Shown: one piece after another, positions 374 through 11,931 of the stretch | Position numbering within the stretch: position 1 is the stretch's first letter | How the letters are laid out: each line of letters begins with the position of its first letter | Virus record (IMG/VR): IMGVR_UViG_3300020576_002947 | Coordinates: 32,001 to 96,000 of that record | DNA: 64,000 bases | Direction: 5' to 3' (one strand) | Source: a virus | Lineage: Duplodnaviria; Caudoviricetes | Notes under the pieces: generated by a model | Databases searched by the model: none | What the model was told of the DNA's origin: nothing | The model's input: the letters and a program-made list of their open reading frames with translations, nothing else | Translations under genes and position numbers: made by a program

Positions 374-979
374 ATGAATAATTTAAATGATATTAAACAA
401 TCGTTAGATGCACCGCTTCTAACTACCGAAGTAAAGGTCAAGCCAGGCTCTAAAGGCGCTCGATACATTAGTGGAGAAACCGCTTTACGTGCAGCCAATA
501 GAGTCTTTGGTTTCGAGAACTGGTCTTACGAAATTACAGATCAAAAGATCTTTCCGAATGAATCAGATCTACTTAAGCCCATATTTATTTCTAGGGTAAA
601 ACTAACTGTAAACATCCCAAATCACGGCACAGTCGTACATGAGGATGTTGGAACAGGTATTGGTTCTACTTCATACGTAGGTCCTAATATAGACGTTGCC
701 GCTAAGGGCAGTGTAACTGATGCTATTAAGAGATGTCTTAGAGCTTTTGGTGATCAGTTTGGATTAGTTCTATATGATCCTCAGAGTGATAATCTGATCG
801 ATCCTGATACAGCAAAGACCAAGTTGCTAGAATTTCTATTGGAATTGGCTGGAGATAAAGCTGCTACAAAGACTATTTGGAGTAAGCTTCTTGAGATCTA
901 TGACCAAAAAGAACTTATTGAAATGTACTTATATGCTCCTCAAGAACTAAAGAGTATCGTTTCCTCATTTAATAATTAA
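374..979 (+). CDS. Rad52/Rad22-family single-strand annealing protein (Sak-like)
   Basis: YISG...ANRVFGFENWS, HEDVGTG, AAKGSVTDAIKRCLRAFGDQFGL.LY are Rad52 signature motifs. Confidence 0.92.
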   Translation: MNNLNDIKQSLDAPLLTTEVKVKPGSKGARYISGETALRAANRVFGFENWSYEITDQKIFPNESDLLKPIFISRVKLTVNIPNHGTVVHEDVGTGIGSTSYVGPNIDVAAKGSVTDAIKRCLRAFGDQFGLVLYDPQSDNLIDPDTAKTKLLEFLLELAGDKAATKTIWSKLLEIYDQKELIEMYLYAPQELKSIVSSFNN

Positions 980-1077: not shown

Positions 1078-4026
1078 ATGGATGTAAATTCACGAATTTT
1101 ATCAGATCTTACAGTATATACTAAATATGCTAATTATATCCCTGAAAAGGATCGAAGGGAAACTTATGACGAAATTGTAACAAGAAATAAAGACTACTGG
1201 CTCTCAAAGTATCCAGATCTTAGTGCTGATATTGAAGAGGCTTATAAGCTAGTTTATGATAGAAAGGTGCTTCCAAGCATGAGGTCTATGCAGTTTGCAG
1301 GACCAGCTATGGACAAGTCACCTGTTAGAGTATTTAACTGTAGCTATTGTCCTATAGATGACTATAGGTCATTCTCTGAAATAATGTTCTTACTTCTCTC
1401 TGGAGTAGGCGTAGGCTTTTCTGTACAACAGCATCATGTTGAGAATTTGCCAAGTCTATCAAATCCAAAGATGTCACGCAAGTTTATTATTGCAGACTCA
1501 ATAGAAGGCTGGAGTGACGCTGTAAAAGCTTTGATGAAGGCTTATATGGTGCCAGGTAAAACTTTGCCTAGGTTTATCTACTCAGAGATTAGGCCAAAGG
1601 GTGCAAAGATCTCTTCGGGTGGATGGGCACCAGGCCCTGAACCTCTTCGACTTGCACTAGAGCATGTAAACTCTATTCTGAGAGCTGCTCTTACAGAGCG
1701 TGGCGATGGTACTAAACTAAAGCCTCTTGAAGCACACGACATTATTTGTATTCTGTCAAATGCTGTCTTAGCTGGTGGAGTGCGAAGAAGTGCCTTAATT
1801 AGCCTATTCTCACCACAGGATAATGAGATGCTTAACTCAAAGCATCGAGATGAGCTTGAAGGAAAGGAGTGGCGCTATCGAGCGAACAACTCAGCAGTTC
1901 TTCTTAGATCAGAAGTTACTGAAGATCAATTTAGGGATATCTGGGCAAGAACCGAAGCTTCTAATAGCGGAGAGCCTGGAATTATCTTTACAAATAATCT
2001 TGACTACGGTGTAAACCCATGCCTTCCTGGTGACGAAACAGTTCTTACATCAGAAGGTATAGTTTATATTAAAGACTTGGTTAGTAAGCCTTTTAATACT
2101 ATTATTAATAACCAAGAGTATACCTCTACAGCAGAAGGGTTTTTCTCTACAGGAACTCAACCTGTTTATGAAATTACTACGAAAGAAGGTTATAAACTTA
2201 GAGCTACTTCCAATCACCTAATTCGAACCTCTCAAAAATCAGGTAGAAAATCAAGAGAAGATAGTTGGGTAAAGTTAGGAGACCTAGGTTCAGGAACAAA
2301 AATTGTACTTAGTAACTCATCTAAAACTAATTGGGGTGGAAAGGGATCGTTTGATGATGGCTGGCTAATGGGTAGTCTTCTCGGAGATGGTACTTTCTAT
2401 AAGAATACTGCTTATCTATGCTACTGGACAGAACACGAGCATCAAGTAGGTATATCAAAAGCTAAATCTGTCCTTAAAACACGTTCGGATTTTGGACAAG
2501 GTTTAGGCTATAAAGGTAAACACCAAAACGGCTCAGTTGATTTATTAGAAAAAGCTATAGAATTCGGTATTCCAGCTTCTAAAACTTTAGATAATACTAA
2601 ATGTGAAATTGGTACATCATCTGAATTCTACAAAGGGTTCCTACAAGGGTGGTTTGATGCTGATGGTACTGTTATTGGAAATCAGCTAAAAGGAGTTTCT
2701 GTGCGCCTTGCATCTAGTATTAAATCCAATCTAGAGATTGCTCAAAGAATGCTTTTAAGACAAGGTATTGTTTCTACTCTTTATCCGCGAAAGAAAGCAG
2801 GGTTTTCTGTTTTACCTGACGGAAAAGGAGGGTCAAAACCCTACGCGACTAAAGCTATGTGGGAATTGGTAATTTCAGGAGAGAACTTAAGAACGTTTTC
2901 TGAGCGGATTGGATTTTCCCATAAAGACAAAGTTGCAAGACTTTCTCAACTTCTTGCAAATTACAAGAGAAATCTTAATCAAGAGGAATATTTAGCCACA
3001 GTAGGAAGTATTGAACTTATTGGCAACTTACCAGTGTATGATTGTACAATACCTGAGATTAGTGCTTTTGAAGCCTCAGGTGTTATAGTACATAATTGTT
3101 CAGAGATTTCGTTGAGACCTTATCAACTATGTAATCTAACAGAGGTTAATGTAAGTAGTCTGGATGACCAGAATGACTTAAATAACCGAGTATGGGCTGC
3201 AGCTTTGATCGGTACTTTACAAGCAAGTCTTACTGACTTTCATTATCTAAGACCAATCTGGCAAAAGACAGTAGAAGAGGATGCTCTTCTAGGTGTTAGT
3301 TTTACTGGTATTGGTAGTGAAGCAGTCTTATCATATGATATAGAAGAAGCAGCTCGAGTAGTTATTGATACTAACACAAGAGTTGCCAAAGCAATCGGTA
3401 TTAACCCCTCAGCAAGAATGACATGTGTCAAACCGAGTGGATCAACCTCAATTGTTATGGGTACTTCTTCAGGTATTCATGCTTGGTATGCTCCTTATTA
3501 TCTACGTCGCGTTAGAATGCGAATGGATGAACCTCTGTCTCAGTACCTGCTTAAGAACCACCCTGAGATTGTAGAAGAGAGCGTTGAAAAGCCAACTGAG
3601 GAAATCATTACAGTTGTTCCTATTAAGGCTCCTGAAGGATCTAAGTTCACACATGAGGACCTTCTTACTTCATATCTTCCAAGATTGAAGAGGATCACAG
3701 AAGACTGGATTTGGCCTACTCACAGGCGTGGCGATAACACTCATAATGTTTCAGCAACGATTCATGTTCCCCAAGGAGAATGGGAATCAGTAGTTGACTG
3801 GTTGTGGGAAAACAGAGATTTTTATCTTGGTGTAACTGCATATCCAGCCTATGATGCTGTGTACAAGCAGCCTCCATTTGAAGAGATTACTGAGGAAGAG
3901 TATAATAACCGAGTTAAGAACTTGAGAGAAGTAGACTTTTCTAAAATCATCGAAACGAAAGATCTTACAGCACTTGAAGAGCAGTCTGCGTGTGCTGGAG
4001 GAGCTTGCGAAATAACACATGTATAA
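1078..4026 (+). CDS. nrdJ: Class II (adenosylcobalamin-dependent) ribonucleotide reductase, intein-containing
   Basis: VLPSMRS, FNCSY, GVGVGFSV, GGVRRSALISL, GEPG, NP|CSEI after intein removal, LCNLTEV, TCVKPSGS, C-terminal CAGGAC. Confidence 0.95.
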   Translation: MDVNSRILSDLTVYTKYANYIPEKDRRETYDEIVTRNKDYWLSKYPDLSADIEEAYKLVYDRKVLPSMRSMQFAGPAMDKSPVRVFNCSYCPIDDYRSFSEIMFLLLSGVGVGFSVQQHHVENLPSLSNPKMSRKFIIADSIEGWSDAVKALMKAYMVPGKTLPRFIYSEIRPKGAKISSGGWAPGPEPLRLALEHVNSILRAALTERGDGTKLKPLEAHDIICILSNAVLAGGVRRSALISLFSPQDNEMLNSKHRDELEGKEWRYRANNSAVLLRSEVTEDQFRDIWARTEASNSGEPGIIFTNNLDYGVNPCLPGDETVLTSEGIVYIKDLVSKPFNTIINNQEYTSTAEGFFSTGTQPVYEITTKEGYKLRATSNHLIRTSQKSGRKSREDSWVKLGDLGSGTKIVLSNSSKTNWGGKGSFDDGWLMGSLLGDGTFYKNTAYLCYWTEHEHQVGISKAKSVLKTRSDFGQGLGYKGKHQNGSVDLLEKAIEFGIPASKTLDNTKCEIGTSSEFYKGFLQGWFDADGTVIGNQLKGVSVRLASSIKSNLEIAQRMLLRQGIVSTLYPRKKAGFSVLPDGKGGSKPYATKAMWELVISGENLRTFSERIGFSHKDKVARLSQLLANYKRNLNQEEYLATVGSIELIGNLPVYDCTIPEISAFEASGVIVHNCSEISLRPYQLCNLTEVNVSSLDDQNDLNNRVWAAALIGTLQASLTDFHYLRPIWQKTVEEDALLGVSFTGIGSEAVLSYDIEEAARVVIDTNTRVAKAIGINPSARMTCVKPSGSTSIVMGTSSGIHAWYAPYYLRRVRMRMDEPLSQYLLKNHPEIVEESVEKPTEEIITVVPIKAPEGSKFTHEDLLTSYLPRLKRITEDWIWPTHRRGDNTHNVSATIHVPQGEWESVVDWLWENRDFYLGVTAYPAYDAVYKQPPFEEITEEEYNNRVKNLREVDFSKIIETKDLTALEEQSACAGGACEITHV
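2020..3096 (+). mobile_element. Intein with LAGLIDADG homing endonuclease in NrdJ (359 aa)
   Basis: Starts CLPGDETV, block B ATSNHLI, LMGSLLGDG and FLQGWFDADG motifs, ends VYDCT...VIVHN followed by Cys. Confidence 0.95.
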
Positions 4027-4039
4027 ATAAAAAAATACT

Positions 4040-4089
4040 AGGGATAAGTAATAAGAGGTAGTCGAAAGCTAACTCTTATTACCTTCCCT
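4040..4089 (+). promoter_or_regulatory. Long hairpin with GAAA tetraloop downstream of nrdJ
   Basis: AGGGA/TCCCT outer stem, GTAATAAGAG/CTCTTATTAC 10 bp, TAG/CTA and C-GAAA-G cap. Confidence 0.6.
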
Positions 4090-4114
4090 GCGGACAGGAA
4101 AAAGAAAGACATCC

Positions 4115-4894
4115 ATGAAAAGTGGACTTGAAACTCTTAAAAATTTGCACAAGACTTGTGATGCTATTTCACATGTTCTCTTAACACCTGATCACGGACT
4201 CTGTGAACATATTTGGGTGAAAACAATTCCTTCATATCCACATGGTTTGAGACATTCTCAAGCTGATATCAAGGATCTTTTTGTTATGATTCAGCCAAAC
4301 ACTGCTGGTTACTCCATGATTGCGATGAGAGATAAGATCTCCCAGAAAGCTTTCGAAGGTGGAACCCATCTAGTTAGTTTGGACGATATTAATACCTTTA
4401 TTACTGAGCTGAAGGCAGCTGAAAAGATCAGCTATACCAAGGACGCTTACGCTATTACTACCTCTGAAGCTGCGAACAGACCAGACCTCTTTAACATCAT
4501 TGCCGGAATTTTTGAGCCTATAACCTTGTCAATAGGGCACGACAAGGATACAGTCTTTGAGATTGAAGTACTTGATGACGGTACTGAAAGGCATCTCAGA
4601 TTCTGTAAGAAGCCCTCTGTCAACATCGGCTCCATCTCAATCAATGGGAACGTAGAGCCCTGCACGCTCACTAAGAACGGCATTACCCTGACATCAGTCT
4701 GGGAGCAGTTCGTTCTTGCTACCAATCTGGAGCTTGACGAGATCAAGGAAATCATGACAAAGCAACAGACTTTGTTTGATACCACATACTCTTCAAAGTC
4801 ATGGTTCCAAGTGCCATCACTCATTCTCAAGGACAACCTTCTTTCTAAGAAGGACAACCTCATTCCGATCATTGGATTGAAGTCCGAAGAATAA
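4115..4894 (+). CDS. Hypothetical protein (first gene of Ubl locus; possible degenerate JAB/MPN-like domain)
   Basis: 259-aa ORF; HIWVKTIPSYPHGLRHSQADI loosely recalls JAB HxH..SxxD but lacks HxH. Confidence 0.55.
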   Translation: MKSGLETLKNLHKTCDAISHVLLTPDHGLCEHIWVKTIPSYPHGLRHSQADIKDLFVMIQPNTAGYSMIAMRDKISQKAFEGGTHLVSLDDINTFITELKAAEKISYTKDAYAITTSEAANRPDLFNIIAGIFEPITLSIGHDKDTVFEIEVLDDGTERHLRFCKKPSVNIGSISINGNVEPCTLTKNGITLTSVWEQFVLATNLELDEIKEIMTKQQTLFDTTYSSKSWFQVPSLILKDNLLSKKDNLIPIIGLKSEE

Positions 4895-4971
4895 AAATAG
4901 AATTGAAGGGTAAGGCCGTCCCTCAAGGACTTATAATCCCTTCTCTTGTTCGGTGAAAACCGGAGACGACT

Positions 4972-5364
4972 ATGCTAGTCAAGTACACTGTTACGGCCCA
5001 GAAGGGCACCGCACGTTCGACATTCAGTGGCGAAACTGAGGTTCAGGCTGCAGGCGACAACGCCGCTGCCCTGTCCGATGAGCTCGCTACTCTCATGAAT
5101 CTCAAGAAGAACTATCCTGGTTCTTGGACTCCTACCAATCAATCCCGCGCCAACGAGCTCATGAAGCTGATCCAGGCCGCCAACAACGGTGGTGGATCAA
5201 TCGAGGCTCAGGCCCGAGACGCCGTCATCAGCACCCTGGTCAACAACCATGGGTTCTCCACCAACGGATCGGCAGAAGCCTGGTACGTTAACCCTCAGCA
5301 CCTCTCCGTTTACAAGAGCGGCGACAGCGTGATGGTTACCGGCGCTGCTTCCTGGGGCCTTTAA
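4972..5364 (+). CDS. Putative ubiquitin-like (beta-grasp) protein with helical insertion
   Basis: Two N-terminal strand-like segments, helix, WYVN strand, C-terminus KSGDSVMVTGAASWG-L like ThiS/MoaD GD.V......GG; GGAG SD; adjacent to E2/E1 genes; strongly C-ending codons. Confidence 0.6.
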   Translation: MLVKYTVTAQKGTARSTFSGETEVQAAGDNAAALSDELATLMNLKKNYPGSWTPTNQSRANELMKLIQAANNGGGSIEAQARDAVISTLVNNHGFSTNGSAEAWYVNPQHLSVYKSGDSVMVTGAASWGL

Positions 5365-5382
5365 GGCTCTAACGACAAGTAT

Positions 5383-5420
5383 GCTGTCAGCCCTCAAAAG
5401 CTGACAGCTCGATTTTCTTT
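5383..5420 (+). terminator. Probable intrinsic terminator/attenuator after Ubl gene
   Basis: GCTGTCAGC/GCTGACAGC 9-bp stem, 8-nt loop, followed by TCGATTTTCTTT. Confidence 0.6.
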
Positions 5421-5444
5421 CCTGGACGACGAGTGGGATAAAAA

Positions 5445-5490
5445 GGGGGCAGACCATTGGGGTGGGTCTGCCCCCGCGACGAGTCACCCC
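5445..5490 (+). ncRNA. Candidate H-type pseudoknot cis-RNA element
   Basis: GGGGGCAGACC/GGTCTGCCCCC 11 bp; loop GGGGTG (5459-5464) complementary to downstream CACCCC (5485-5490). Confidence 0.5.
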
Positions 5491-5519
5491 TCTACTGACG
5501 CAATTGTCAGACAGCTACA

Positions 5520-6320
5520 ATGCTTCCTGAATTCTCCACAAGGCATAAAGCTATTCCTAGCGGTACTTGGGTTAACCATTACTGCGATTTATCAGATCCT
5601 TCCAAAGAAACCATCAAGTTGATGAAGACTGCGGAGGAATATTTCAATCAATCTATCAAAGATCTTTGGGGTCTCCCAGTTACAAAGTTTGGGTGTCGAG
5701 ACCTTGTCTATTTCTCTGACATTGGCACTGTTGACAGCATGGCTCACATGCTCAACATTAACAATGGTAATCAGGTTGAGATTATCCAGCAGCACCTTGA
5801 CATGACCAAGCCTTGGATTCTTCCTAAGCTTGAGAAGTTTTGGAAAGCTCGTGGTAAGACTGAGCTGGATTTCTTTAACAAGGTTCTCACTACGGGCCAG
5901 TATTCCTCATTTGGCGCACCCCGCCTTATGTGGGCTAATAGATCATTCTATGGCAGTGTTAAGATTGGTGGAAACAATCTTGATCTGTACTTTATGAATA
6001 AGGAAATGTTGCTAGATACCCTGACCTTTTTTAGGACAGACTGGGCAACTGAATTATTCCAAGAGCAGATTAAGCCTTTTGAATGGTTCTATACTGTTAA
6101 CAACGTTCAGTGCGAAAGGACTTGTATTGGCAATGATGGTAATAAGATTCAGAGTCTTCAATCTCCTGCGTCGAGACCTATTGATCTCCAGCTTTGGTTG
6201 GCATCATGGGGCACGAACATGCTGAAGGCTACCTTTAACCATAACAACACAAAAGTTGTCCAGTATAACAGTAATCAGGCTAAGGTCACTGAGGCCTTGC
6301 TTGCAGGACTGAAAAAGTGA
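5520..6320 (+). CDS. Putative prokaryotic E2-like conjugating enzyme (E2 family D / PRTRC-B-like)
   Basis: KPF...NNVQCERTCIGN resembles P..NV....C.G and W...ATFNH resembles the F..S.F[NT]H tail; stop overlaps ThiF start. Confidence 0.55.
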   Translation: MLPEFSTRHKAIPSGTWVNHYCDLSDPSKETIKLMKTAEEYFNQSIKDLWGLPVTKFGCRDLVYFSDIGTVDSMAHMLNINNGNQVEIIQQHLDMTKPWILPKLEKFWKARGKTELDFFNKVLTTGQYSSFGAPRLMWANRSFYGSVKIGGNNLDLYFMNKEMLLDTLTFFRTDWATELFQEQIKPFEWFYTVNNVQCERTCIGNDGNKIQSLQSPASRPIDLQLWLASWGTNMLKATFNHNNTKVVQYNSNQAKVTEALLAGLKK

Positions 6321-7102
6321 GACATGTTATTGTTGTCGGAGCCGGGGCGGTCGGCTCCGCCTTTATCCAAGAGCTTTCAAAGTTCTGTCTTTCAAACCAT
6401 ATCCATACTACAGCCCATCTTTATGATTTTGATGATATTGAAGAACGAAACTGTGCTGCACAGTGCTTCGATGCCAGAGAGATCGGAGGATTAAAAGCTG
6501 TTGTTTGTTCTGAGAAGTTCTCAAACGAATACCTTACTATTACCCCATACAAGGAGTATGTTGACGCTAAAGTTATCGAGTCCTGGAAAACTCTTGATTG
6601 GTATGACAATGATATAGTCATTGTCGATGGTGTTGATAATCTAAAAACAAGAAAGCTGCTTTGGATGGAAGGCTTTATGTGTGACTTCAAGGTCATGCAT
6701 CTTGCCCTATCTGCCGAAGGTTTTGGCCTTGTTAACTGGAACTTCGGCACAGACAATACCTATTGCTATGACTTTAGCATTATCGGTGAGGATGAAATCG
6801 AGAAGAGGGATGAAGCTGCAAAGAACGCTGAGAAGCTTCCTCCTTGTGAATTGAACAAGCATCGTCACATGATGTTTAGTGTTGGTTTATCAGGAACCCA
6901 CTCTCTTATGAACTACTGGGGTATTCCAGACGAATGTCTTATTACCAAGTTGCTGGAAGAGCATGGTGTAAGATTTATCCCTAAACTTCTTTTCTCTTTC
7001 AGAACAACAATGGATCGAATTGAACTACTTTTGGGAGAAGGTCAAGTTATCAATACTGAACCTACAGAGCCAAATGGCGAAGAAGCAGCAAAGGAGAATT
7101 AA
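6317..7102 (+). CDS. ThiF/MoeB/E1-like adenylyltransferase
   Basis: GAGAVG, DFDDIEERNCAAQ, GGLKA, DGVDNLKTR; candidate catalytic Cys in KLPPCEL; GTG start. Confidence 0.9.
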   Translation: MRHVIVVGAGAVGSAFIQELSKFCLSNHIHTTAHLYDFDDIEERNCAAQCFDAREIGGLKAVVCSEKFSNEYLTITPYKEYVDAKVIESWKTLDWYDNDIVIVDGVDNLKTRKLLWMEGFMCDFKVMHLALSAEGFGLVNWNFGTDNTYCYDFSIIGEDEIEKRDEAAKNAEKLPPCELNKHRHMMFSVGLSGTHSLMNYWGIPDECLITKLLEEHGVRFIPKLLFSFRTTMDRIELLLGEGQVINTEPTEPNGEEAAKEN

Positions 7103-7109
7103 GAAAGAG

Positions 7110-9734
7110 ATGTCCCACTGGGCAGGAAACAACAATAATAACTATAACGGGGACAACAGAATCACGGTCGTCGGTCTTGACAAAACTGTTCTTGGTGAAG
7201 TCTTATGCTTTCCTTATGAATTCAACAACATTAAAGCAGTTTTCCAAGAAGAAGACACCAGGGTTCCTGGTGTCTACAAGGAACTCAATGCCAAGCATAT
7301 TGAGATCGTTATGCCTGCTGACTACATCCAGTGGAAAGCAAAGTCAGGCAAGACGGTTGCTATGTGCGCCTTTAATGCTAGCATGGGATTTATCAGCTGC
7401 AATCTGGGCAAACGACTAGATGGAGCTGATGAAGCCTGGTACAAAGCTATTCCTCAGACACATGCTGAGGGATTAAGAGAGGGGGCAACCTTCGATGTTA
7501 TTCAGGAACTGGTCCGACCTTACGGTATCGGCATTTCTGAAATCTGGGTCAGGAGCGACAAGTTCCTTAATCCAGATCTTGACAAGTGGAGGGAGTATCT
7601 CCCAGCTAACCCACTTTTTAACTTTTCTGATCCTAATGGAAGCTCTGCAGGTCTTACTGACAAGGAAGCTCTTGCAAACCCATTAGCTGATATGTTTGTT
7701 GATGAGAAAGATACCTGGAGAATGCACAGGATCAAGGGGCATGAGTCATTGGACGGCCCCCTTATCTATATGCGTGGTGGTGCTTCTGCAGCAGGTGGTG
7801 GTGGTCATGCTACCTATATCGGTCCTAGGTGGTCAGATAAGAACTTCGATTATGCCATTCGTCTTGATCACCTCTCCAATATCAATTACATAAAGGTACC
7901 TGATCCTATTGACACTACGGTGGAAATGGATATCAACTTGCCTGAGTCTTATCTGGTTAAGTCTACCGACGGGAATGTAAAGGTGAAAGACCTATACCCA
8001 AAAGGAGTGACTTATTCCCACAACAATCCTTATCAGAGTGGTGGGACGAACAGCTCGGCACACACGGTTACTATTTCTAGCACCGCGGATGAGGTAATAA
8101 AATTTATGTTTACTGCCGCTCCTGGTGCAGGAGTTTATTCGTCTGACTATAACAAGATGAAGTCTATGTTTTCTCAAGCGTTTAAGGGGGATTTCGAAGC
8201 TGTCTTCAGCATCGATAAACCTAGTTCATATACCAAGGACTTTTTCCCTCTTATAGCATCATTGAATAAAATGTTTCTTCTGCCTACTGATTTAGACCAG
8301 CTTGAGAAAGCATCGGCTATTTTCAGTAAGCAGCCTGCTGATCTAGGAGACTTTAGACTTAGTCCTGAAACCAAGGAAAATCCATACCCAACTCAGATTA
8401 GGGCTTGGATGGACAAGGTTAAGACTACAATTGACAAGAAGGAAATGTCATTGTATGGCTTATGGTCAGTCTATGTCTTCTTTAATATGTACTTCAATGC
8501 TCTTACTGAGGCTAGCATTAAGAAACTTTATGGAGATAAGCTTGGCCTTATGAGAGTTCTCTCAACATGGGCAATAGACTATGCTCTTAAAGTAGAACTT
8601 GCTGCTGGTGTCGAAGCAAAAGTAAAACTCATTACTGTTGAACCAGCAGAAAAGAAAGTTGCTACTATTGCTAAGAAATCAGACTTCCTTGCTATTGGAG
8701 GAATTAAGACTGCGGCTGAATTCAATCAGAGGCTTACACAATTAGCTGGAGAGGGTGTCATTCAGGAACATCTTTCCAAGACTGATATTGCAAGCTTTAC
8801 CATGATTGATGACGCTATCAAGGCTGTTCGAACCAAGTTGCTGAAGAACAAGTCTGCTGATATAGTACCTGAGTGTATTCTTGGTCAAGACTTCGGGGAG
8901 TATGATCTCATCATTTCCAAATGTGTTGAAGGCCGAAGAAAGCTAACTCGTATTGCGAGTGAAAAGCTTTTTGAGTCTATGCAATCTGTTTGGAAAGGCA
9001 AGAATGACATGCCTCCTGCTGACCTGTGTACTTTCCAGGCAGCTATGCTTATTACTAGCTGGTTCTGCAAGCCAGCTTTTGCTCATGCTGTATCCCTGTA
9101 CAGTTTCTTTGCGACAAAAACGCAAAGCACTGCTATTGTGAAGGACTACACTGAAACAAAGCTTGGGCATAACGACATGTTCAAGGCTTTTGTGGGAGTA
9201 CTTCGATCTATCCACACTGCTTACAAGGATGGCACTCTTGGACCTACTCTAGATCCAGGCATCAAGCTGTCCCAAGAAACTGAGCAGGTCCTTAGGATCT
9301 ATATGGTTCCTCCTTCTCCTGAGGTTGCAAAACTTCTTGAAGCTGTTATTCAGAACAGCGAAGAAGGCTATATGAGGTGGGTTGACAAGCAGGTCCTTGC
9401 TGACTGGAAACTCACTGGACCTCAGAACTTTATCGAACTTGATTGCAAGAAAGGAAACTTCTGGAACATTACCAATAGTAGTCCTTCCGATGCGATCTTC
9501 TTCCTTACTCTCTATGCCGCAGTAGTTCTTGCAGTTGATCAGAATGAGAATGAAGAAAGCCTTAGGCTCTTCACCCATAGTCTGTTCACTGAGTACGAGA
9601 ACTGCTTGGTTAGGGATGTCACCGAAGATATTTCTAAGGTTATCTTCATTGAGGATACTATCGAAACAGTAGCCGCCTTCCCCTGGAGTGTCTACGGCTA
9701 CATTACCGCACTTCTCAACAAGAAGGTTCGGTAG
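7110..9734 (+). CDS. Large protein with possible N-terminal papain-like Cys peptidase domain (start may be 7074)
   Basis: About 875 aa; AMCAFNASMG helix-start Cys and GGGGHATYI His-strand pattern; remainder unrecognised. Confidence 0.45.
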   Translation: MSHWAGNNNNNYNGDNRITVVGLDKTVLGEVLCFPYEFNNIKAVFQEEDTRVPGVYKELNAKHIEIVMPADYIQWKAKSGKTVAMCAFNASMGFISCNLGKRLDGADEAWYKAIPQTHAEGLREGATFDVIQELVRPYGIGISEIWVRSDKFLNPDLDKWREYLPANPLFNFSDPNGSSAGLTDKEALANPLADMFVDEKDTWRMHRIKGHESLDGPLIYMRGGASAAGGGGHATYIGPRWSDKNFDYAIRLDHLSNINYIKVPDPIDTTVEMDINLPESYLVKSTDGNVKVKDLYPKGVTYSHNNPYQSGGTNSSAHTVTISSTADEVIKFMFTAAPGAGVYSSDYNKMKSMFSQAFKGDFEAVFSIDKPSSYTKDFFPLIASLNKMFLLPTDLDQLEKASAIFSKQPADLGDFRLSPETKENPYPTQIRAWMDKVKTTIDKKEMSLYGLWSVYVFFNMYFNALTEASIKKLYGDKLGLMRVLSTWAIDYALKVELAAGVEAKVKLITVEPAEKKVATIAKKSDFLAIGGIKTAAEFNQRLTQLAGEGVIQEHLSKTDIASFTMIDDAIKAVRTKLLKNKSADIVPECILGQDFGEYDLIISKCVEGRRKLTRIASEKLFESMQSVWKGKNDMPPADLCTFQAAMLITSWFCKPAFAHAVSLYSFFATKTQSTAIVKDYTETKLGHNDMFKAFVGVLRSIHTAYKDGTLGPTLDPGIKLSQETEQVLRIYMVPPSPEVAKLLEAVIQNSEEGYMRWVDKQVLADWKLTGPQNFIELDCKKGNFWNITNSSPSDAIFFLTLYAAVVLAVDQNENEESLRLFTHSLFTEYENCLVRDVTEDISKVIFIEDTIETVAAFPWSVYGYITALLNKKVR

Positions 9735-10804
9735 TTTAAGAGCTTATCCTTATTTCTTCTTGATACTATAGGGGACAAGAACCTGTAAAGGCGTCCCCTA
9801 TAGTGTTTAAACCATTTGGTGCTGATTTGGGTATTGAATGGAAGATATAGTGGTTCGTACTCTTTAAAGAATTGAAAAGTAGGTACATCACTATTCAAAA
9901 TTAGGGGAATTTTTGCTTGGATGGCCTCCAGTACAATTAAAGAAAAGCTCTCTGAAGTTGAGGGCATTATAAATAAATTACTAATATCTAGCAAAGATCT
10001 TACTGTTTCATGATCTGTAGTGATTTTAAACTGTTCAGAGACCTGAGACATAAAGATCATATTAGAATAACCTTTAATACTAGTTTCAATATCTTTACAG
10101 TTGTCCATTAAAACTAACTGTTGGATAGTAGTTGCATAAGAGTTAGGAACAATTAGAAGAGTCTTCCATTTAAAAGTCTTTTCTATTAAACTTAGTAGAA
10201 AAACTATTTTGTGTATACCTTTGAATTCAGCAATTCTTGTAGGATACACACAAACAAGGTCATATTTATTTAAATCATAATTATCGTACAAACACCTAAC
10301 CATAGGATTTTTAGGTGGTTTAGTAAAATGAGGTAAAACAATAACCTCCTCCTCTGGTACTGAATATCTTTCTGAGATACCCTTCACCATGTAAGGAGTT
10401 AAAGCTACATAGACCGCGTTTGGGTATGGTTGGTAGTTTAGTCCAGTATACTGCTGTCCAGTCAAACTATGACTCCACACAATGAATTTAACACTTGGAT
10501 TAAGGCGCCTTATTGCATAATTAAGGTGCATAAATCCTTCAATAAAAAACACATCATGGATTAAGCAAACTTCAACACCCAAAAAACATTCGGTAAGAGA
10601 CTCCTTTACTCGTTGGTAGTACTCTTCCAATCCCTCTGAAGTAATCCATCTTGGAAACATCCGAACTTCGTTAACCACGCTCTCTTTAAAATCTGAAGTT
10701 GTGATTAAGGTAGCCTCTGGAAAAACATCTAATTGGTTTTCTACGATTTGTGCTACACTATAACTCTTTTCAAACTTAGAGATTGGGCAAAGAATAGCAG
10801 TCAT
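9698..10804 (-). CDS. Glycosyltransferase, GT-B fold (GT4-like)
   Basis: YPTRIAEFKGI, NLFIMPSTSESFSLIVLEAIQAKIPLI GT4 motif; lone - strand gene in region. Confidence 0.88.
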   Translation of the reverse strand: MTAILCPISKFEKSYSVAQIVENQLDVFPEATLITTSDFKESVVNEVRMFPRWITSEGLEEYYQRVKESLTECFLGVEVCLIHDVFFIEGFMHLNYAIRRLNPSVKFIVWSHSLTGQQYTGLNYQPYPNAVYVALTPYMVKGISERYSVPEEEVIVLPHFTKPPKNPMVRCLYDNYDLNKYDLVCVYPTRIAEFKGIHKIVFLLSLIEKTFKWKTLLIVPNSYATTIQQLVLMDNCKDIETSIKGYSNMIFMSQVSEQFKITTDHETVRSLLDISNLFIMPSTSESFSLIVLEAIQAKIPLILNSDVPTFQFFKEYEPLYLPFNTQISTKWFKHYRGRLYRFLSPIVSRRNKDKLLNYRTFLLRSAVM

Positions 10805-10824
10805 ACTGTTAATGTCGTACAGAA

Positions 10825-11931
10825 ATGGAACAATACCTTTCAACAAACAGAATTAAAGGGGATATCCCAACTATTATAGAATTAGGGGGAGAAGAAATTG
10901 AAATTCCTTCGACTCTTCAAAAGAATCTTTCTACTGTATCTTTAGACAGCAAGAACGCAGTAGTACGAAGTACTTTTATTTCTCCTGTTCTTGGAAGTAT
11001 ATTTAACTCCAGCAGGTTTGAAGATCCTGACATTAAGTTTGCTGAACTGAACAAAGCTCTGAAACTTTTAGACGAGTTAATTAGTAACTTTGTAAAAGAA
11101 TCTATTCTCAAGAGATCTCATAATCTAGGATTCAGTGCCTTTGCTCAGTCACATGAGAATGTAGGCGTTGATGAGGTAATGATATCTTCTGAGAGTTTTA
11201 AAGAACTCGTTAGATATAACAGCAATTGGTCTAAGTGTAGAAAAGTTGTTGTAGTTCGGTATCCTAATCTAGGGCCACAAACTACTATCGAGCTTAATCT
11301 GGTTATCCAGCAATCTAACAGACCTGGTGGAGAAATCAAATCAAAGTTAGGTTGCGTTTGGCTTAATCAAGCTGTTCTGAAGAACTGTCTTGAAGGCGAC
11401 GCAGATGGTGATATGATCTTTTGTAGCTTCAGTAAAAAAGGAACTCCTCTAATCCAAGACGTTCCTTTAGAAAGAAGCCAAGGTTCAATCACAGATAGCG
11501 ATATTAAACTTCTTATTAAAAAGTCTTTGGTAAACAAGGATCTTAATGAAGCAGAATACCTTGCTGCTCAGATTGATCATGTACCAATTGACAAAGCTAC
11601 CTATATTATTAGGTGGCTACTGTACCTTAAATCTCTTCAGTACACTAATGAATATCAGCCATTGAACAAAGCTTGGGAGGATATTGCTCCTGAAGCAATC
11701 AAGTTAGTTGAATTTGTCATGGACATTAGAAAAGGCGATTTTTCTAAAGAAGAGATTAAACAAAAGCTTGAATATATTGATAAAGTTTATCTTAATATTC
11801 AGATTCAGAAGTCTAAAGGACATTGGTTTGCAAAGACCGTTACCTCAGGAAAAATTCAGGACATTGAAAAGTTTCTTGAAACATTCCCTACTTCTCAATC
11901 CTACTTAGATTATTGTCAGAGAATAGAATAA
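10825..11931 (+). CDS. Minimal RNA polymerase beta'-like subunit (catalytic double-psi barrel)
   Basis: VVVVRYPNL (RxP motif) followed by LEGDADGDMI (DxDGD metal-binding loop). Confidence 0.72.
   Translation: MEQYLSTNRIKGDIPTIIELGGEEIEIPSTLQKNLSTVSLDSKNAVVRSTFISPVLGSIFNSSRFEDPDIKFAELNKALKLLDELISNFVKESILKRSHNLGFSAFAQSHENVGVDEVMISSESFKELVRYNSNWSKCRKVVVVRYPNLGPQTTIELNLVIQQSNRPGGEIKSKLGCVWLNQAVLKNCLEGDADGDMIFCSFSKKGTPLIQDVPLERSQGSITDSDIKLLIKKSLVNKDLNEAEYLAAQIDHVPIDKATYIIRWLLYLKSLQYTNEYQPLNKAWEDIAPEAIKLVEFVMDIRKGDFSKEEIKQKLEYIDKVYLNIQIQKSKGHWFAKTVTSGKIQDIEKFLETFPTSQSYLDYCQRIE

Follow-up and report, generated by a model that had tools for sequence, protein, structure and literature searches.

The locus described here lies in a 64,000-nucleotide stretch of DNA from an uncultured phage (hereafter the window), which corresponds to bases 32001-96000 of a 239,691-bp IMG/VR virus record (IMGVR_UViG_3300020576_002947) estimated to be 94% complete. 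It contains a cassette of four genes, which code for a small protein with a conserved glycine at or next to its C-terminus (S), a ThiF-type adenylase resembling activating enzymes (E1) of the ubiquitin system (ThiF), and two proteins with an invariant cysteine each (X and Y), and it is set here beside the described systems that it most resembles.

The Bil operon is composed of BilA, a ubiquitin-like protein (Ubl), BilB, a conjugating enzyme (E2), BilC, a JAB peptidase, and BilD, an E1 (PMC11601596; 10.1101/2023.09.04.556158). The characterised prokaryotic operons that combine E1, E2 and Ubl, namely Cap2/Cap3 of the cyclic oligonucleotide-based antiphage signalling system (CBASS), Bil and Bub, are host defence systems (PMC11601596, 10.1101/2023.09.04.556158, PMC10097602). 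In the Atg system, trimming of Atg8 by the Cys protease Atg4 uncovers Gly116, whereas the terminal Gly186 of Atg12 is exposed from the outset (PMC12005411), and GABARAPL2 loses a single residue, Phe117 (PMC8098127). Finally, the ParB-related, ThiF-related cassette (PRTRC) system is composed of a ThiF (TIGR03736), protein B (TIGR03737, Prok-E2_D) and protein C, which is a Ubl.

A four-gene cassette conserved across jumbo-phage lineages

We propose that the locus is a virus-specific cassette (S, X, ThiF/E1 and Y) for the ATP-dependent activation and transfer of a small tag. It is very probable that ThiF activates the C-terminal Gly of S, and we rate the chances of the full cascade as about even; what the evidence supports is the activating enzyme, together with its probable substrate, and not the rest of the pathway.

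The cassette was found in eight distinct lineages (the window phage, L002, L003, L004, L005, L006, L069/L065 and L071), the locus GC content of which spans 0.35-0.67, and the only families common to the eight loci are S (130-165 aa), X (450-526 aa), ThiF and Y (430-874 aa). The gene order is S-X-ThiF-Y, except in L005, where it is S-ThiF-X-Y, and the X, ThiF and Y genes abut or overlap one another, being translationally coupled. X, ThiF and Y contain one invariant cysteine each. The family alignments of S, X and Y are small (8-12 sequences). The four-gene synteny, the [W/F]G end in all eight S proteins and the single invariant cysteines are, taken together, far beyond what chance would produce. 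The comparison of synteny in other phages that a preliminary description of this DNA had proposed showed that the ThiF family always has S, X and Y as neighbours in the loci recovered. Cellular ThiFs obtained in the scans were also considered as relatives of the cassette and rejected, being ordinary MoeB/ThiF proteins without S, X or Y neighbours.

The preliminary description had treated five co-oriented open reading frames (ORFs) on the plus strand, at 4115-9734, as one operon. The coordinates stand, although the unit of five does not, as it is four families that recur across the eight lineages. The first ORF (P0001, 259 aa, 4115-4894, plus strand) has no family match and lies outside the conserved cassette: none of the seven other cassette lineages has a homologue of it, and it was discarded as a cassette member even though it shares the raised GC content at third codon positions (GC3) of the block, with a value of 0.46. 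It was likewise rejected as a split-off N-terminal half of X, to which it shows no resemblance (E = 3.5 in a hidden Markov model search), and as a JAB peptidase, since it has no JAMM motif and no match. In the 240-kb genome the S, X, ThiF and Y families are each single-copy.

The ThiF/E1-type adenylase

ThiF (P0004, 261 aa from a GTG start, 6317-7102, plus strand) is the only protein of the five that matches any library (Pfam, PHROG, NCBIfam and PADLOC were scanned with all of them); scans with the individual members of the S, X and Y families likewise yielded no consistent match. Its match to the Pfam ThiF model (PF00899) has an E-value of 9.1e-12, above the cut-off, which, together with invariant ATP and Mg residues, bears out its earlier identification as a ThiF/E1. 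It also matches the NCBIfam models TIGR02356 ThiF (3.7e-9, residues 3-115) and PRTRC_ThiF (1.9e-6) and, weakly, the PADLOC models E1-E2 (4e-6) and BilD (3e-4), all of the library matches falling within residues 2-129. The key residues are GAGAVG, D37, R44-N45, Q49, K60, D104xVD107N, R112 and P176-C177, and in an alignment of 32 members G8, G10, G13, D37, R44, N45, Q49, K60, D107, R112, W141 and P176-C177-x-L179 are invariant. Judged by its sequence, ThiF is an intact E1-type adenylase. The ThiF start codon overlaps the stop codon of X (TGA/GTG as GTGA), and the translational coupling of the two genes that had been noted earlier is thus present, as are all the motifs quoted in that description, in the ORFs that it named.

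The phage ThiFs form a distinct family of about 240 aa with an invariant PPC(E/Q)L cysteine, a motif that resembles the P-x-C-T-L catalytic-cysteine motif of Uba1. A phmmer search with P0004 against PDB sequences found nothing, and the family profile matched the active adenylation domain of Uba1 best (3e-16), followed by E. coli ThiF (4e-13) and MoeB (5e-12), with MccB (4e-8) also among the matches in the same set. In the HMMER alignment with Uba1 the phage segment lpPCeLnsfR is placed opposite iPlCtLrsfp, with C177 at the Cys, in a separate, non-significant stretch (-0.3 bits). We take the Uba1 segment, IPLCTLRSFP, to hold the catalytic Cys600 of the yeast enzyme (3CMM numbering).

Exhaustive searching of 1.84 billion representatives with phmmer retrieved 193 relatives of ThiF; 84 of these reach E<1e-10, most of them with a length of 230-280 aa. 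The ten closest members are all metagenomic, one of them on a 243-kb contig. In motif-seeded scans, members turned up in IMG/VR, both on large contigs (195-395 kb) and on two smaller ones (40 and 93 kb), and also on short contigs from metagenomes; all the long contigs recovered with a family member (195-395 kb) are viral. No full-length member was found in a motif-seeded scan of one genome per species from 185,579 prokaryotic species, which gave only matches to the N-terminal Rossmann half; ten similar N-terminal-half matches sampled from the metagenome scan score as ordinary MoeB/ThiF proteins, which are a clearly separate group from the phage family. The region and three family ThiFs had no match by blastn/tblastn in 50,697 phage records, save one Acinetobacter phage MoeB (N-terminal half), the family had no match in the plasmids searched, and single-protein scans of viral contigs found nothing.

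The glycine-ended protein S

S (130 aa, 4972-5364, plus strand), the probable E1 substrate or tag, ends in GAASWGL, with W128 and G129 in the residue numbering of this 130-aa protein. The C-termini of S in the eight lineages are WG (four), WGL (the window phage), WGK, WGR and FG, so that Gly is terminal in five of the eight and penultimate, with one extra residue, in the other three. G129 is invariant and W128 nearly so, being Phe in one lineage; the terminal motif is therefore a single Gly after W or F, not GG.

AlphaFold2, run with the eight-sequence alignment, gave a model of S with a predicted local distance difference test (pLDDT) of 80.5, composed of strands 2-11 and 14-23, three helices, and strands 111-116 and 119-128, the Gly coming directly after the last strand. 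The core is thus predicted to be four-stranded and of beta-grasp type, with a three-helix insert. For an independent ESM model of S (predicted template modelling score, pTM, 0.50), the nearest structural neighbours included RnfH-ubiquitin, a threonyl-tRNA synthetase (ThrRS, TGS-containing) cluster and DUF4430, at TM 0.34-0.36 by query length, and no ubiquitin, ThiS or MoaD chain was listed among them. None of the eight members matched Pfam ThiS, ubiquitin, Prok_Ub or related models at E<=10, the family profile found nothing in PDB sequences, and a structure search of BFVD with the S model returned nothing, while a VIA-wide search was swamped by the helical hairpin of S. Because no ubiquitin, ThiS or MoaD chain was listed and no profile matched, we describe S only as a predicted beta-grasp-type protein and do not claim that it belongs to the Ubl superfamily. 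The earlier proposal that this 130-aa protein is a Ubl is upheld in part: the conserved C-terminal Gly after the last strand of a predicted beta-grasp-type core favours it, and the missing Ubl sequence-profile match does not.

The S gene is also set apart from the enzyme genes downstream by a hairpin and a high-expression codon signature. Its GC and GC3 are markedly above those of its locus in five of the eight lineages (0.57 and 0.67 in the window phage). Between S and X there are two terminator- or attenuator-like elements, a hairpin followed by a T-rich run (5383-5408) and a second hairpin with an 11-bp GC stem (5444-5475), and the hairpin region of the window has a folding energy of -57 kcal/mol (z -3.1). 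A hairpin 3' of S is present in six of the seven lineages folded, with z of -2.5 to -5.9 in five and -1.8 in L002. The codon and GC pattern and the hairpin would fit production of S in larger amounts than the downstream enzymes.

The cysteine proteins X and Y

X (P0003, 266 aa, 5520-6320, plus strand) aligns in the window phage with the C-terminal ~250 residues of the 450-526-aa ThiF neighbours found elsewhere. Its invariant residues are R172, C198, R200, L223 and W226, with a WC[QE]R motif in the family. The preliminary description had predicted a conserved cysteine in X, which holds for C198 (in VQC-ER) but not for the cysteine that it named, the CIG cysteine C202, as both C202 and the ATFNH tail are found in the X of the window phage alone. 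Its assignment of X to E2 family D (PRTRC protein B) has to be abandoned. Four genuine protein B sequences, collected from 401 Pseudomonadota genomes, do show the N-V-x6-C-x-G and F-x-x-S-x-F-T-H motifs, neither of which is conserved among the X proteins; TIGR03737 and PF14460 do not match X either, and hhalign of the X family with the four sequences gave a probability of 0.2%.

No relative of X was found outside the cassette lineages by the searches made. A word-indexed search of 5.8 bn protein clusters returned no homologue of P0003 and nothing for the X alignment, the poor quality of which (964 columns) is probably to blame, and the family profile found nothing in PDB sequences. The AlphaFold2 model is weak (pLDDT 53, pTM 0.58, with the Cys loop below 50) and no fold match was found for it, and the ESM Atlas gave no usable lead (pTM 0.18). 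In L071, two further X-like ORFs (6329-7264 and 7254-7904) lie upstream of S, beside the full-length X (8541-9977), and they may be paralogous carriers. Because of its position, its translational coupling to the E1 and its single invariant cysteine, X is a candidate carrier with an E2-like role, of no known family.

Y (P0005, plus strand, ending at 9734) would be 904, 886 or 874 aa from starts at 7020, 7074 or 7110. The most probable start is the ATG at 7110, eight bases past the ThiF stop codon and with a Shine-Dalgarno-like site ahead (GAAAGAG/AAGGAG), although the frame is also open from 7074 and 7020. In all the lineages recovered a Y homologue comes after ThiF, with X interposed in L005. 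Only about 215 residues are conserved (85-300 of the 904-aa frame, window 7272-7919), among which C116, A120, Y168, N197-P198, G262 and R270 are invariant and D137, W140, Y266 and P269 nearly so; H263 is found in eight of 11 sequences, and in the remaining three the His lies three positions closer to the N-terminus. At the level of sequence, C116, H263, N197 and D137 are thus candidates for the Cys-His(-Asn/Asp) residues of a papain-like peptidase. The C-terminal parts vary between lineages, with extensions of several hundred residues in the window phage (~570 aa), L002 and L071. Among the Y proteins of L003, L004, L013, L009 and L010, several end in a paired CxxC...CxxC that is zinc-ribbon-like. 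Y has no Pfam, PDB or PADLOC match, phmmer of P0005 against PDB sequences found nothing, and the word-indexed search of the 5.8 bn clusters gave self matches or nothing. As a candidate Cys/His enzyme, Y would fit a processing or deconjugating peptidase, or a ligase. Only three of the eight S proteins need trimming and, therefore, maturation cannot be the sole job of Y.

Genomic setting and base composition

A profile scan identified, in the neighbourhood of the cassette, genes for Rad52, an intein-bearing class II-like ribonucleotide reductase (RNR), a reduced two-subunit RNA polymerase and a RecA-like protein, because of which the locus is placed in a jumbo-phage replication and transcription neighbourhood. 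The Rad52/22-family single-strand annealing protein is encoded at window 374-979 (plus strand; PF04098, 2.2e-22) and the RNR, with its intein and LAGLIDADG homing endonuclease, at 1078-4026 (plus strand; Intein_splicing 5.6e-12, LAGLIDADG_3 3.8e-19). An RNR gene also adjoins the cassette in L006 (10099-12210). On the other side, a family 4 glycosyltransferase of the 'conflict systems' type (9698-10846, minus strand; PF20706, 1.6e-8) is convergent with the end of Y; it is not conserved beside the cassette in other lineages.

The GC content is 0.42-0.46 over window 4001-10000 and 0.33-0.39 elsewhere, and GC3 is 0.39-0.67 in all five genes of the block compared with 0.27-0.35 in flanking genes. 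Because GC3 is raised across all five genes, this composition suggests that the block at 4115-9734, including the 259-aa orphan, arrived in one piece from a higher-GC phage.

The proposed pathway and its alternatives

In the pathway that we propose, the residue that follows Gly in some S proteins (Leu130 in the window phage) would be trimmed, probably by Y, and ThiF would then adenylate Gly129. S would probably be held as a thioester on C177 of ThiF, handed to C198 of X, acting in an E2-like role, and finally joined to an acceptor, while Y, through its Cys and His, would serve as the peptidase for processing or deconjugation, or else as a ligase. A more specific form of this proposal, which we regard as a tentative possibility, is a virus-only Ubl conjugation pathway in which X and Y are new folds, or known ones diverged beyond recognition, and in which an abundant tag with an aromatic-Gly end is attached to phage structures, host proteins or lipid. 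The role in host takeover or counter-defence that was suggested earlier would be pure conjecture.

Several observations weigh against conjugation. No E2 model (Pfam, NCBIfam or PADLOC) matches any member of the X family, and the hhalign comparison sets X far from PRTRC protein B. S ends in its single Gly right after the last strand, without a flexible GG tail. The stretch of ThiF that aligns C177 with the Uba1 Cys has a negative score on its own, and the putative catalytic His of Y is shifted by three residues in three of the 11 sequences. Moreover, the phage has no JAB peptidase (PF14464 is absent from the 240-kb genome at E<=1, and the five proteins match no JAB model), whereas the characterised bacterial Ubl operons have one, except for the extra BubE of Type I Bub.

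The alternative that survives best, though we consider it unlikely, is a sulfur-carrier pathway, in which ThiF would adenylate S to form a C-terminal thiocarboxylate and X and/or Y would thiolate a nucleotide, a tRNA, a DNA base or a cofactor, as in the ThiS, MoaD, TtuB and CysO pathways. The known bacterial pairs of a ThiF and a small beta-grasp protein were first found as sulfur carriers, and the phage ThiF, a single-domain protein of about 260 aa with one loop cysteine, has the size of MoeB and ThiF. The cassette also lies among genes of nucleotide metabolism (RNR in the window and L006, PNKP in L005), and the invariant cysteines of X and Y could hold persulfides. Against this, S ends in [W/F]-Gly and not in Gly-Gly, in which, to our knowledge, all the characterised sulfur carriers end. 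ThiF is without the zinc-binding CxxC pairs of MoeB and ThiF (there are none in P0004 and none is conserved in the family alignment), its profile is nearer to Uba1, and it does not reach a family-level MoeB/ThiF score (36 bits for TIGR02356, the cut-off of which is 275, and <=20 bits for the MoeB models). No rhodanese, cysteine desulfurase, PP-loop or ThiS-family (PF02597) gene was found in the 240-kb genome, so that partners for sulfur transfer would be missing, although host enzymes could substitute for them; the earlier statement that thiamine and molybdopterin genes are absent is correct, since none was found in the phage genome, nor any sulfur-transfer gene. Furthermore, X and Y match no sulfur-insertion enzyme, and the codon bias and hairpin of S suggest abundance at the level of a substrate.

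A second alternative, somewhat less probable still, is that S itself is C-terminally modified by a chemistry of the MccB/PaaA type, with the adenylated Gly captured intramolecularly or by a small molecule; S would be the effector (a toxin, an inhibitor or a structural protein), with X and Y as enzymes for its tailoring or for export/processing. In favour of this, the ThiF-fold relatives that the family profile matches include MccB (4e-8), neither X nor Y can be placed in a conjugation family, S looks abundantly expressed, and its one-residue extensions resemble a follower residue. S is, however, predicted to be a folded protein of 130-165 aa, not a short peptide, the phage ThiF, at 240 aa, is too short to hold the N-terminal peptide-clamp domain that MccB needs, and a thioester relay agrees better with the invariant Cys that ThiF and X both have. 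Finally, it is highly improbable that the linkage is merely genomic, with a substrate from the host for ThiF, and S, X and Y as unrelated neighbours (or S as a structural protein or decoy), as X and Y being orphans would allow, because the synteny of four genes holds across lineages that are otherwise unlike locally and range from 0.35 to 0.67 in GC, genes of the operon overlap at their start and stop codons and the terminal Gly of S is invariant.

Full-text literature searches on jumbo phages found no paper describing a phage-encoded cassette. The cassette has been kept across jumbo-phage lineages of very different GC, and combines a minimal E1 and a tag without a GG end with two cysteine proteins outside the known E2 and deubiquitinase families. 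If conjugation is its function, viruses would run a tagging chemistry of their own, new carrier and peptidase families would join the ubiquitin world, and the minimal E1 of ~240 aa would provide a compact model for how a thioester relay arises from ThiF-type adenylases. If S were a sulfur carrier instead, the cassette would be a sign that giant phages make a thio-modification not known so far.

Comparison with known systems

The cassette shares with the Bil, CBASS and Bub systems a compact operon, an E1-type adenylase, a small Gly-ended protein (predicted, in the phage, to be of beta-grasp type), a cysteine protein encoded beside the E1 and a putative peptidase. It differs from them in being encoded by lytic-type jumbo phages and not by their hosts, and in its components: the E2 models do not match X, Y forms a family without known relatives, the tag has [W/F]G in place of a terminal GG and the E1 is a bare adenylation domain of 240 aa.

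With the ThiS-ThiF and MoaD-MoeB pairs the phage proteins have in common a single-domain adenylase of the ThiF fold and, as its substrate (a probable one in the phage), a small protein of beta-grasp type (predicted for S) with a C-terminal Gly, but they are without the GG terminus, the zinc CxxC pairs, a ThiS Pfam match and the partner genes for sulfur transfer. The PRTRC system resembles the cassette in its short ThiF (~245-280 aa), in a P-x-C motif after the adenylation core and in a small protein that ends in Gly. The PRTRC ThiFs compared carry an analogous P-S-C-S motif, and the phage ThiF profile matches two of them with 49-55 bits, in the N-terminal half. In contrast to that system, X is not protein B, and the phage cassette has neither a ParB nor a JAB protein.

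No sequence relationship was detected with the Atg system (Atg7, Atg3/Atg10 and Atg4); the phage E1 is far smaller than Atg7, and the predicted core of S is a four-stranded beta-grasp with a three-helix insert, unlike Atg8 and Atg12. The likeness is in the terminus of the tag, since Atg8 and Atg12, like the S family, have a single terminal Gly and occur both with this Gly exposed (as in five S proteins) and with extra sequence after it (one residue in three S proteins). In Atg8 and Atg12, too, the residue that precedes Gly is aromatic. They may, thus, offer a useful functional analogy for the termini of S.

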